A stretch of 64,000 bases of DNA from Escherichia phage moha: sequence record MN850590.1; one strand, 5' to 3'. Below are positions 2,681 through 6,334 of the stretch, in pieces. The stretch's first letter is position 1; every line of letters starts with the position of its first letter. The position numbers were made by a program, and so were the translations under genes. The notes under the pieces were generated by a model. It was not told the DNA's origin. It saw nothing but the letters and a program-made list of their open reading frames with translations, and ran no database searches.

Positions 2681-2866
2681 ATGAAACGCGCTGAACTGAT
2701 TCGTAATGTTGCTGTAGTAATTGCTTCAATGGCTTTTAGTTTTTCGATGTTTGTAGGATTCATTTGCGGACTACTGACAACAACTGAAAATTCTATCTCA
2801 TTGGTAGTAGCATTTCTAATCGGTTTAATCGCTATCGTTATGGATAAAATTGCAAAAGGTGAGTAA
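2681..2866 (+). CDS. small membrane protein
   Basis: 61 aa, two hydrophobic helices; SD ggag before ATG 2681. Confidence 0.7.
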   Translation: MKRAELIRNVAVVIASMAFSFSMFVGFICGLLTTTENSISLVVAFLIGLIAIVMDKIAKGE

Positions 2867-2867
2867 A

Positions 2868-3230
2868 ATGAAATATCACGTATATGCGGATTTTGAAGCA
2901 AATCCTTCTAAAGACCCTGATTGTCGTTTGATACGCAAACCATTTGATTCAGCAGCTCAAGCATGGACTTGGATTAAATCTAAATCGCCTGGTTATATGT
3001 TCTTTGAAGTAGTCGATGACAATGGTACACTGCATCCAGAACCTACAGAAACTATTAATTTCCTTCTGTTTGCTGGTTACGACTGTTATCCTCTTGGCGG
3101 TATTGATGATCTTGTTGCTACAGGAAAAACTGTTGAGGCTCTTCGCGAAATTTATAAAAACGCAGAAGAAAATTTTGACTGGTATCATATTGTTGATGCT
3201 CACACCTTTGAAGTGGTGGAACATTCATGA
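2868..3230 (+). CDS. hypothetical protein
   Basis: 120 aa; SD ggtgag before ATG 2868. Confidence 0.75.
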   Translation: MKYHVYADFEANPSKDPDCRLIRKPFDSAAQAWTWIKSKSPGYMFFEVVDDNGTLHPEPTETINFLLFAGYDCYPLGGIDDLVATGKTVEALREIYKNAEENFDWYHIVDAHTFEVVEHS

Positions 3231-3521: not shown

Positions 3522-4037
3522 ATGAATATTTGTTTAGGCAGTACAATTCCTAAGGGTTACGTAATTGATGTCACTACTTGGGAAAATGACGGCGACAACT
3601 ATAAAACTAAAACGTTGTTTGGTGTAGAAGAGCATGAGCTCCAACAGTTTAAATATCTTTTGAAGAAATTTAAGAGCCGTCATTCCAGCACTAAAGCTGA
3701 ACGTTACTGTGGTAATACACTATTCAGTGATTGTTCGCTTTTAATCTATGAATACTTGGTTGAAGGATTGTTCTCAGACCAGCTTTATCCAGAATTCATT
3801 AAAAAGGTCTTTGATATTGAAGTCGACCTTGGTAATAAATCTGAAGAAGACGAATCGCGTGTATTTGACCTGTTCCATGAGAATGGATATTTAGTATCAG
3901 AAGGTCTCATTGATATTCTTGGTCATGCTTCTGAATATTATGATTATGATTTCTTGCGTGTAGTTGAATGTGTTGAATTTGCTTATATTGAAGAAGAAAT
4001 CGTTTTGCCGACTGTTAAAATGATTGATTTGCTTTAA
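3522..4037 (+). CDS. hypothetical protein
   Basis: 171 aa ORF. Confidence 0.75.
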   Translation: MNICLGSTIPKGYVIDVTTWENDGDNYKTKTLFGVEEHELQQFKYLLKKFKSRHSSTKAERYCGNTLFSDCSLLIYEYLVEGLFSDQLYPEFIKKVFDIEVDLGNKSEEDESRVFDLFHENGYLVSEGLIDILGHASEYYDYDFLRVVECVEFAYIEEEIVLPTVKMIDLL

Positions 4038-4116
4038 GAATTATGTGTTATTATTAATTCATACCCTCTATTACCAAAGGTGCTCTAAAGTGCCTTTCAT
4101 AATAGAAAGTTATTTA

Positions 4117-4191
4117 GGCCCTGTAGCTCAATGGGAGAGCTGTCAGCTCATAACTGATAGGTAGCTGGATCGAAACCAGCCAGGGTCACCA
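4117..4191 (+). tRNA. tRNA, anticodon CAU (Met or Ile2 type), encoded CCA
   Basis: cloverleaf folded by hand: acceptor GGCCCTG/CAGGGTC, D arm GCTC/GAGC, anticodon loop CTCATAA, T arm GCTGG/CCAGC. Confidence 0.75.
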
Positions 4192-4194
4192 ATC

Positions 4195-4271
<77 letters not shown>

Positions 4272-4289
4272 ACTTTAAGTGAGGAAAAT

Positions 4290-4634
4290 ATGAAAGGCAA
4301 TATTTATCTGGTAGTTCATGACTTAACGTTTTATTTTAACGAACGTGAAACAGTTATTTCCGACCGGTTGATTAATTCGTTATATCAACACGCTGATTAC
4401 GTTTATTTCCAAAATGAATTTGGCCATTGGAAGTTTCTTAAAAACCGTTCAGGGTTAACTAGTTTTGAATACTTTGACCGTAAAGACCTTTTAAACGAAA
4501 TTCCATTACAACATCGGTTCCAGAAACGCGAATCACTATACTATTGTCGTCATATACCAAATGCTGAATGTGTTAATGAAGCGATTAATCTATGGCGGCG
4601 GCGTCGAGAGCAAATTGATGATATGCCAAAATAA
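4290..4634 (+). CDS. hypothetical protein
   Basis: 114 aa; SD gaggaaaa before ATG 4290; the listed 4242 start would overlap the tRNA. Confidence 0.7.
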   Translation: MKGNIYLVVHDLTFYFNERETVISDRLINSLYQHADYVYFQNEFGHWKFLKNRSGLTSFEYFDRKDLLNEIPLQHRFQKRESLYYCRHIPNAECVNEAINLWRRRREQIDDMPK

Positions 4635-4639
4635 GAAGC

Positions 4640-4943
4640 CGGGTCGCTACCGGCAAGTCGTCGGACTGATGTTCCCTGAGTAAGGACTGGTCTTAATAAA
4701 TCTTTACGATTTGTTAATATCCCCTTACATCACAGCAGAAACGGCGCACCGAATTATCGATTCGAGGAAATATCTTTGCCGTAAGCCGAGTAGCGTTTTT
4801 GACGGAACGTTCGGATATGGTCGAGATATGGCCTTTTAAAAATATTGAGTAGCGTCAACTGCTTAATAACCGGGTTCGAATCCCGGCGTTTCGTACAAAC
4901 ACTTGCCTTAGCAGGTGGAACCCCGACAAGGTTGCCGCAAGGC
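4640..4943 (+). ncRNA. candidate small stable RNA(s) or degenerate tRNA remnant
   Basis: ~300 bp without credible ORF between tRNAs and terminator; tRNA-like T arm CCGGGTTCGAATCCCGG at 4870-4886 with acceptor-like CGGAACG/CGTTTCG pairing, but no canonical cloverleaf. Confidence 0.3.
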
Positions 4944-4945
4944 TT

Positions 4946-4975
4946 AGCCCCTTCCGAAAGGTCGGGGCTTTTTGG
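4946..4975 (+). terminator. rho-independent terminator
   Basis: hairpin GCCCC-ttccgaaaggtc-GGGGC followed by TTTTT. Confidence 0.7.
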
Positions 4976-5018
4976 CATAATAATAAATAGATAAGTTAAT
5001 TAACTTAGGAAAAGCAAC

Positions 5019-5483
5019 ATGAAATCATACGCTGAATTTTTGACTGAACAATCTAGTTCAGATGTAAAAGCCGCTGCGATTGCAGCAATTCAAGCAGGTA
5101 AATATTCTTACAAAGACGCCTCTGATGAAGAACGTTTCCGTTTTATTAGAGATTTTAAAGCCGAAGGTTTTACTAATGCTAATACTGTTAGCCGAGTTTT
5201 TAAAAGCCTAGCTGCATCAGGTGAATTGTTCCAGAAAGCTACAGGTAAAGCACCTGCGCCAAAAACAGACCCTAAAGCAGCTCAAGAAAAAAATATCGCC
5301 AAAGGAATTATTTCTAAGTATGAAGCAATTCTTAAAGAGCTTTTAGTAATCAAAACAGAAGGCCAGAAACTGGCACGAGCACATAGCTTCAAAGATAATC
5401 CTCACGCTCATAGCCTTGAGTATGTTGAAGATATCCAAAAACTTATTAAAGACCGTATCTGGTCTGCTAAACAAATTAAATAA
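5019..5483 (+). CDS. capsid-targeting-sequence protein (candidate internal protein)
   Basis: 154 aa; N-terminus MKSYAEFLTEQ resembles the internal-protein leader MKTYxEFI. Confidence 0.75.
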   Translation: MKSYAEFLTEQSSSDVKAAAIAAIQAGKYSYKDASDEERFRFIRDFKAEGFTNANTVSRVFKSLAASGELFQKATGKAPAPKTDPKAAQEKNIAKGIISKYEAILKELLVIKTEGQKLARAHSFKDNPHAHSLEYVEDIQKLIKDRIWSAKQIK

Positions 5484-5489
5484 TAGAAT

Positions 5490-5518
5490 GCCCCTTCCTT
5501 ATGGTTGGGGCCTTTTGG
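5490..5518 (+). terminator. rho-independent terminator
   Basis: GCCCC-ttccttatggtt-GGGGC then CTTTTGG. Confidence 0.7.
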
Positions 5519-5549
5519 TATCTAGGGCATAAAAATATTTCATAAAGAT

Positions 5550-5578
5550 GTTTACTTCTTCTAAGGACATGATACTAT
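5550..5578 (+). promoter_or_regulatory. early promoter
   Basis: -35 GTTTAC, ~16-17 bp, -10 TACTAT. Confidence 0.55.
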
Positions 5579-5606
5579 AGACTTATCAACCATAGAGGAA
5601 AATGTT

Positions 5607-6110
5607 ATGAGTCTTTACACTGAACTGAATAAAAAATCTGAAGAATCTGCTGAAACTATTTTTAAAAACGTGCAAAAGCGTATTTTGGAAAAGATGTATG
5701 ATGCAGCATCTAAAGGTGAAAAATCTTGCCGGTTTCCGATGAGGTGTTCTTCTGATTTATGCGCAAATACTATTGAATGGCTGGAAAGTGAAGGTCTTAC
5801 GGTAGAGAAAAACCCGGCGACTTCTATTGACGGCGAATCATATATTAGTATTTCTTGGGATAAATCAAGGGTAGAAGAGAAAGATGGTGATTGGGTTGTA
5901 GATGTTAAAACTTCTGATGGTGGACGTTCTGTTGAAGTTTCGGCTGTAGTTAAAGGTACCCACGAACAAAGGACTTGGGGTTGGGGTGGTGAAGAAAAAG
6001 AAATTGTTCTTAGTGTGATTGCCAGGTCAACTAGTAATAAAATTGCACAAAGCATCATTGACGCTGCAATTGCTGAAGCAGAAAAAATTTGCAAAATTAA
6101 AAATAAATGA
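5607..6110 (+). CDS. hypothetical protein
   Basis: 167 aa; SD agagga. Confidence 0.8.
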   Translation: MSLYTELNKKSEESAETIFKNVQKRILEKMYDAASKGEKSCRFPMRCSSDLCANTIEWLESEGLTVEKNPATSIDGESYISISWDKSRVEEKDGDWVVDVKTSDGGRSVEVSAVVKGTHEQRTWGWGGEEKEIVLSVIARSTSNKIAQSIIDAAIAEAEKICKIKNK

Positions 6111-6169
6111 TGTACAAACGCCAAGGATGGTGGTACTATAGACTTATCAACTACAGAGGAGTAAACAAA

Positions 6170-6334
6170 ATGACTACTTTAATTATTTGGTTCGATGAAA
6201 ATGAAGAAACATACTGTGTGAATATTGGTGAAAGTCCAATGCCTGAATTTGAATCCTCGGATAAAAACTCTGTTGTATCTTGGGCTGAAGGTTATAAAGC
6301 AGCTAAAGGTGACGTTGAAATAATTTACATCTAA
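6170..6334 (+). CDS. hypothetical small protein
   Basis: 54 aa from ATG 6170 with SD agagga; upstream part of listed ORF overlaps previous gene. Confidence 0.6.
   Translation: MTTLIIWFDENEETYCVNIGESPMPEFESSDKNSVVSWAEGYKAAKGDVEIIYI

Follow-up and report, generated by a model that had tools for sequence, protein, structure and literature searches.

The window analysed here, the whole 64,000-nt stretch of Escherichia phage moha (MN850590.1), comes from an RB69-like T-even phage, and its positions 4000–6200 are 99.9% identical to Escherichia phage vB_EcoM-172859UKE1 (Mosigvirus). The earlier note had described a 154-aa ORF beginning MKSYAEFLTEQ downstream of the tRNA cluster. The ORF was found at exactly 5019–5483, and the tRNA-Met/tRNA-Arg pair ends 748 nt upstream of it. 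The features of the locus are the following:

4117–4191, tRNA-Met gene, upstream of the ORF
4195–4271, tRNA-Arg gene, upstream of the ORF
4947–4978, + strand, upstream copy of a 32-nt direct repeat, a hairpin with a U-tract that ends the tRNA/rnaD/rnaC unit; left edge of the cassette
4982–4989, + strand, late-promoter motif AATAAATA of the gp55 type with A at −13; predicted transcript start near 4995
5007–5010, + strand, Shine-Dalgarno sequence AGGA, read from the sequence, 8 nt 5′ of the ATG
5019–5483, + strand, coding sequence of 154 aa plus stop with an ATG start, beginning MKSYAEFLTEQSSSD; member of PHROG 2280
5490–5521, + strand, downstream copy of the 32-nt direct repeat, a hairpin with a U-tract; right edge of the cassette

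Between the tRNA genes and the ORF lie a small ORF and then an rnaD/rnaC-like stretch (4629–4978), which is 92.6% identical to the T4 region that carries the stable RNAs rnaD and rnaC and the terminator. Rfam analysis of positions 3900–5700 returned the two tRNAs only, and no model matched rnaC or rnaD. In the record of the nearly identical phage, two small "hypothetical protein" CDSs (172859UKE1_229 and _230, matching ORFs 4711–4839 and 4845–4994) are annotated over this stretch and are probably spurious. The next gene 3′ of the cassette (5607–6110) belongs to PHROG 6869, which has no assigned function. It is preceded, downstream of the second hairpin, by an early-type promoter (GTTTACTTC...GATACTAT, within 5550–5602) that opens the next unit. 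Positions 5550–5602 and 6131–6175 are 77–85% identical to the denV–ipII intergenic region of T4, and such promoter modules seem to recur around the genome.

The two repeat copies that flank the ORF are 81% identical and spaced 543 nt apart in the repeat search. Both were predicted to fold into stable hairpins (−16.7 kcal/mol for 4947–4978, and −16.4 kcal/mol with a z-score of −3.0 for 5490–5521), and a terminator scan gave a match at 4952–4967. The Tequatrovirus slur03 has copies of 36 nt that share 94% identity. Phages T2, T4, and T6 carry one terminator copy and lack the gene; the downstream copy of the window matches the single copy of T2 and T6. When T2, T4, and T6 were aligned with the left and right flanks by blastn, the alignments overlapped by about 35 nt exactly inside the hairpin, indicating that the gene was gained or lost via an event between the repeats. 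The absence of the gene from T2, T4, and T6 also explains why the family has never been studied.

Directly after the first terminator copy stands the late-promoter motif. At the same place AATAAATA is present in RB69, TATAAATA in slur03, fD1, RCIP0032, and fHe-Yen9-01, and CATAAATA in EK29 and Kc304. In T4, TATAAATA is the late promoter and A at −13 is the commonest natural variant, seen at 9 of 50 sites (PMC2988020); the same variant is common in relatives (PMC1524935). The sequence WATAAATA is under-represented in the 64-kb window, with 10 sites against 18.5 ± 4.1 expected and at least 10 in every shuffle, which lends some weight to every site, the one at 4982–4989 included. The + strand holds eight of the ten. 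The depletion suggests selection against accidental late promoters in a mostly early region. No early-type promoter (GTTTAC...TAnnAT) was found upstream of the ORF. A sigma-70 promoter was also considered there and rejected, as the scan gave no + strand site and the GTTTAC −35 element is absent. On the basis of the conserved motif, the protein is predicted to be synthesized late, at the time of prohead assembly.

The protein matched the profile of PHROG 2280, a family of unknown function, over its full length (E-value 1.4e-53, residues 1–154 against positions 1–172 of 178). By tblastn, matches were present in 511 phage records: about 70 of the Mosigvirus type with at least 95% identity, about 400 of the Tequatrovirus type (e.g., RB32ORF133c) with roughly 73%, and about 40 Klebsiella phages matching in the N-terminal half only. 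With the Yersinia homologue as the query 526 records were obtained, to which Serratia, Kosakonia, and Enterobacter phages had been added. Searches of large protein collections returned family members only, as 9 clusters in a word-indexed search and 8 representatives among 1.84 billion proteins in a full HMMER search, and those relatives among the 1.84 billion that could be traced to a source belonged to T4-like phages. In every record sampled the annotation is "hypothetical", and no literature naming RB32ORF133c or RB69ORF149c was found.

Since the CDSs in related records over the neighboring rnaD/rnaC region appear spurious, we also considered that ORF 5019–5483 could be a chance reading frame beside stable RNA genes. 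This is refuted by the dN/dS values, which are 0.09–0.10 against Tequatrovirus orthologues at dS above 1 and 0.06–0.10 over a dS range of 0.4–1.5, and by full-length conservation in more than 460 records. In addition, the ORF is equipped with a ribosome-binding site, a promoter motif, and a terminator of its own, and peptides of an orthologue have been detected by mass spectrometry (see below), so we regard a chance ORF as next to inconceivable. With the domains taken separately, dN/dS was 0.03–0.10. Intact copies of the gene are under strong purifying selection.

In seven of eight loci compared (the window, RB69, slur03, RCIP0032, EK29, Kc304, and PS2) the gene lies right after the tRNA cluster; for the eighth, fHe-Yen9-01, the 1.5 kb retrieved upstream contains no annotated tRNA gene. 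Several genomes carry truncated or frameshifted alleles. Phage fHe-Yen9-01 has tandem paralogues, gp154 and gp153, behind one TATAAATA (922–2037 of the compared stretch), both with the unusual leader ML(Q/E)Y(N/S)EFLKE, and Serratia phage PS2 has a tandem 72-aa copy followed by a full-length copy (1235–1959 of the compared stretch). RB69ORF149c (MKTYAEFLTEA...) occupies the same locus on the minus strand of RB69 (15380–15991) and belongs to the gp154-like branch, with 29% identity to gp154 over 96 aa. The gene is frameshifted, and the rest of its C-terminal part continues in another frame as the annotated ORF148c, which reflects either a pseudogene or an error in the reference sequence. RB69ORF149c (leader MKTYAEFLTE) and gp154 (MLQYNEFLKE) thus represent a paralogous subfamily with the same locus, the same kind of leader, and a similar architecture of a helical N-terminal part, a Pro/Lys linker, and a helical C-terminal part; the similarity to the window protein is distant, 26% in the alignment. 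Finally, one 2.9-kb metagenomic contig encodes a chimeric protein of 94 aa. Its N-terminal two thirds are trna.3-like and match Pfam PF26894 (Phage_T4_Y07C), as does ORF 2850–3230 of the window, and its last 32 residues are of the same type as the PHROG 2280 C-terminus, which implies a natural deletion of the whole tRNA/rnaC region. Presence and absence, broken alleles, and tandem copies are typical of an accessory gene that can be dispensed with but is of use as long as it is intact.

[quoted passage not shown] The parts of the product are listed here, the arrow marking a predicted cut in this and all following leaders:

5019–5048, + strand, leader (capsid targeting sequence) MKSYAEFLTE, with a predicted gp21 cut after Glu10 (L-T-E↓Q)
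5049–5234, + strand, N-terminal domain, residues 11–72, a three-helix, HTH-like bundle
5235–5273, + strand, Pro/Lys/Ala-rich linker, residues 73–85, KATGKAPAPKTDP, disordered, with pLDDT below 50 at residues 79–85 and a KAPAPK motif
5274–5480, + strand, C-terminal part, residues 86–154, a long helical hairpin in the model

Six of the ten leader residues agree with the capsid targeting sequence of T4 IPII and IPIII (MKTYQEFIAE), and seven agree with the leader of the 93-aa ip gene in the window itself. Amber-suppressor experiments with the IPIII leader, as reviewed in an account of the work of Black, showed that targeting depends mainly on residues 4 and 7 and processing on residues 8 and 10, with Asp10 blocking cleavage and leaving targeting intact (PMC9026906). 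The window protein has Y4 and F7, both identical to IPIII, at the targeting positions and L8 and E10 at the processing positions, and L8-T9-E10 conforms to the L/I-x-E motif of gp21. Scanning 578 Met-starts that give at least 50 aa in six frames of the window with the pattern M..[YF]..[FIL][IL].E resulted in four matches against 0.12 expected from composition, and all four are ip-type genes on the + strand. The very similar leader claimed in the earlier note is therefore borne out by the shared residues, by the critical positions, and by the rarity of the pattern. The mature parts are treated below; as to the leader, the window protein is like IPI, IPII, and IPIII of T4 in following the MKTYQEFIAE pattern, including its critical residues and cleavage motif.

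The comparison was extended to homologues from eight taxa, namely seven named genera and one unclassified Klebsiella phage. The leaders were MKSYAQFLNE↓AVLNE↓A, MKTYNEFLNE↓S, MK-FKEFLAE↓A, MK-FKEFLSE↓G, MITFNDILVE↓G, MLKFNEFLAE↓G, MLEYSEFLKE↓L, MKSFNSFLNE↓G, and MKTYAEFLTE. Positions 4, 7, 8, and 10 (aromatic, F or I, L or I, and E, respectively) are kept in all of those sampled, with drift at the other leader positions. Each of them contains L/I-x-E at a distance of 9–11 residues from the N-terminus, followed in some by another such site 4–8 residues further on. The residue after the predicted cut is Gln in the window protein versus Ala, Gly, or Ser in homologues. Known gp21 sites usually have a small residue after the cut, so the Gln is atypical. 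Residues 1–43 gave a weak match to phrog_7857, an "internal virion protein" family. In the AlphaFold model the leader is disordered (pLDDT below 50) and lies outside the folded part, so it was modeled as a flexible propeptide. If it is left in place, the N-terminal peptide of the window protein would be SYAEFLTEQSSSDVK, and after processing it would be QSSSDVK.

From these features, ORF 5019–5483 probably encodes an unnamed T4-type internal protein that is packaged by its leader, processed by gp21, and injected. Alternatively, the leader could be a relic of recombination with an ip gene, and the protein would then be cytoplasmic, late, and not packaged. The ip genes have 5′ ends in common in their DNA, which favors such shuffling, and in Klebsiella phage EK29 the PHROG 2280 leader has diverged (MITFNDILVE) more than those of the classical internal proteins of the same phage, which keep MKTYKEF; this may mean that the leader is less tightly constrained than in the classical proteins. 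We also looked in EK29 for co-variation between this leader and those of the other ip genes and found none. A relic, however, is difficult to reconcile with the retention of positions 4, 7, 8, and 10 across eight taxa at synonymous saturation, with the constant distance of L/I-x-E from the start and the occasional second site, with the conserved late-promoter motif, and with a leader modeled as a disordered propeptide outside the folded domain. We therefore consider the relic improbable and packaging of the protein the better explanation.

The window contains further leader-bearing genes of the ip type:

2323–2610, ipI, matching Pfam IPI_T4 with an E-value of 1e-50
13210–13491, 93-aa ip gene adjoining the lysozyme gene, member of phrog_3499 ("internal head protein"), RB69p127 type
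13970–14230, 86-aa ip gene
14295–14873, ipIII-like gene

Together with ORF 5019–5483 these make the five leader-bearing genes, ipI included, that the earlier note had counted, and its statement that the ORF lies apart from the other ip genes holds as well, for the ORF occupies a third locus directly after the tRNA/rnaC terminator. The name ipII, apparently meant there for the 93-aa gene, has to be dropped, since phrog_3499 is a different family and the gene is not an orthologue of T4 IPII. The RB69 copy of the 93-aa gene has a diverged leader, MKTYMNFYQNLSLNE↓A. As for the expanded repertoire that had been proposed, five genes do exceed the three of T4, but five is normal for the genus and RB69 has six. 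T-even phages have long been known to carry diverse leader-bearing proteins (PMC3012670; PMC9026906), and in view of this and of the six such ORFs in RB69, another member will not surprise a specialist.

Both ipI and ipIII are preceded by early-type promoters (GTTTAC, about 17 nt, TAnnAT) and not by TATAAATA in T4 and in the window, where the promoter regions lie at 2240–2322 and 14215–14294. The window gene, unlike these two, has a late-type promoter motif, indicating that its expression differs from theirs. The 93-aa and 86-aa ip genes of the window (13210 and 13970) have no promoter of their own and lie downstream of the lysozyme gene e; gene e has AATAAATA at 12693–12700.

The precursor has a mass of 17 kDa, and the predicted mature form comprises 144 aa and 16.0 kDa with a pI of 9.6, 13.9% Lys, and 15.3% Ala. 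Nearly the same values apply to the mature IPIII of this phage (pI 9.6, 12.6% Lys, 15.9% Ala), and the window protein resembles IPIII in being small, basic, and rich in Lys and Ala. The three-helix domain was modeled over residues 13–67 (domain model pLDDT 87), and the N-terminal domain is the part conserved across homologues from phages of E. coli, Klebsiella, Yersinia, Kosakonia, and Serratia.

In contrast to the leader, the mature part is without detectable homology to the T4 internal proteins. The protein gave no match to Pfam IPI_T4 (PF11634), and no homology of the mature region to this family or to the IPII and IPIII families (phrog_2667 and phrog_5341) was found. The alignment with IPIII covered the 12 leader columns only, and that with IPII was weak, with 39 columns at 42% probability in hhalign. 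A tblastn search against T4 gave only the N-termini of ipII and ipIII, with E-values of 0.02–0.4. In the comparison of 5019–5147 with T4 ipII (1597–1719 of the compared stretch; tblastn E-value 0.02), weak similarity extended past the leader (YSYKDASDEERF versus HSFHDLPDKDRK), which may reflect either distant common descent or coincidence. Nothing above threshold came from Pfam or NCBIfam, whose weaker hits (GemA, MerR, SelB winged helix, and a histidine-triad domain) amounted to noise, and Foldseek against BFVD found family members only. Altogether, the sequence and fold searches gave no match pointing to a specific target.

Virion mass spectrometry had been suggested as the way to check packaging, and an existing proteome provides it in part. 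Yersinia phage fD1 (phiD1, Tequatrovirus) encodes an orthologue, Gp140, of 157 aa that is 76% identical to the window protein; its gene occupies the same locus and is preceded by TATAAATA. An LC-MS/MS analysis of ultracentrifuged virions counts Gp140 among the particle-associated proteins under its strict criterion (two or more peptides and a mean spectral count of 2 or higher), together with the other two leader-bearing proteins of fD1, the "head protein" Gp129 and Gp146, which is IPI (PMC8309999 Table S3). Gp140 is annotated as hypothetical and particle-associated and was never linked to the internal proteins. It differs from the window protein in being the Tequatrovirus form, with a longer leader and two L-x-E sites (MKSYTQFLNE↓AVLNE↓A). 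The orthologue was detected in purified particles, but in those of another phage and in an unspecific preparation: 113–137 of 277 phage proteins (41–49%) were listed, thymidine kinase, DenV, and NudE among them, alongside 672 co-purified host proteins (PMC8309999). For this reason the detection of Gp140 lends only mild support to packaging, and the many non-structural proteins listed as particle-associated would also be compatible with a relic leader. As the search was fully tryptic, it says nothing on N-terminal processing. The processed N-terminal peptide of Gp140 would be AVLNEASSTEIQAVAK or ASSTEIQAVAK, and the unprocessed one SYTQFLNEAVLNEASSTEIQAVAK. The RB69 "odd RB" paper contains no virion proteome and the fPS phage paper no proteomics. 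Like the T4 internal proteins, the window protein is encoded by a non-essential, polymorphic accessory gene in the region of ipI, the tRNA genes, and e, and it has an orthologue listed as particle-associated; unlike theirs, its gene is at a third locus after the tRNA/rnaC terminator and is absent from T2, T4, and T6.

These observations are consistent with the following course of events. Late in infection, a short transcript of its own would start from the gp55-type promoter AATAAATA between the two copies of the rnaC terminator. The 17-kDa precursor would bind to the scaffolding core of the prohead via its 10-residue leader MKSYAEFLTE, and the prohead protease gp21 would cut after Glu10. The basic mature protein of 144 residues would then stay in the head among the DNA and be ejected with the genome into the next host. 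There, it would most likely neutralize an early-acting defense, the main alternative being a DNA-associated role.

This alternative holds that the protein is packaged but structural, a basic, DNA-associated filler of the head serving charge neutralization and DNA packing or ejection, with no specific target in the host. Such a bulk role has often been proposed for IPII and IPIII, and the lysines of internal proteins contact DNA phosphates in the head according to a review (PMC3012670). The pI of 9.6, the Lys/Ala-rich composition, and the PAPK-type linker, which recall mature IPIII, would fit it too. Against it, the gene is dispensable, as T2, T4, and T6 lack it and frameshifted alleles circulate. 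Moreover, every leader-bearing protein given a function so far is an anti-restriction factor (bioRxiv 2023.04.06.535777; bioRxiv 2025.11.20.689424). We therefore find a purely structural role rather unlikely and favor an injected protein that acts on the host.

The anti-defense role proposed for the PHROG 2280 protein is the most likely one by analogy with characterized proteins of this kind. IPI inhibits GmrS/GmrD and IPII inhibits fused GmrSD/BrxU (bioRxiv 2023.04.06.535777), IPIII is needed on ECOR17, even without its leader (PMC9391042), and the leader-bearing Bas37_0260 inhibits McrBC (bioRxiv 2025.11.20.689424). Bas37_0260, recognized only recently, is likewise a leader-bearing protein of a T4 relative that shares only the N-terminal signal with IPI–III; it is encoded at the ipI locus and was found because that locus is polymorphic (HIDEN-SEQ preprint, 10.1101/2025.11.20.689424). 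It differs from the PHROG 2280 protein in its locus and in that inhibition of McrBC was demonstrated for it, and the likeness drawn here is one of description.

A wider reading, which we put forward only tentatively and hold to be doubtful as a whole, is that the site after the tRNA/rnaC terminator constitutes a third polymorphic ip locus of T-even phages, at which terminator-bounded late cassettes are gained, lost, duplicated, and swapped. The PHROG 2280 protein might then be an abundant injected inhibitor of a defense that is new to the internal proteins, acting via its HTH-like domain and helical hairpin, and might have been overlooked only because T2, T4, and T6 lack the gene.

What is new here is the assignment of PHROG 2280 to the class of internal proteins, the third ip locus with its terminator-repeat cassette, and the link to an existing proteome match. 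Host immunity encounters the internal proteins before any other phage product. All those given a function so far block type IV restriction, namely IPI (GmrS/GmrD), IPII (fused GmrSD), and Bas37_0260 (McrBC), and IPIII has a host-range phenotype (ECOR17) with no target assigned. PHROG 2280 has matches in roughly 500 sequenced T-even-type phages, many of which are candidates for therapy. The probable head-packaged status of its products corrects their annotation and makes them a cheap and concrete target for host-range and anti-defense screens, and the cassette bounded by terminator repeats offers a simple mechanism by which such genes may be gained and lost.
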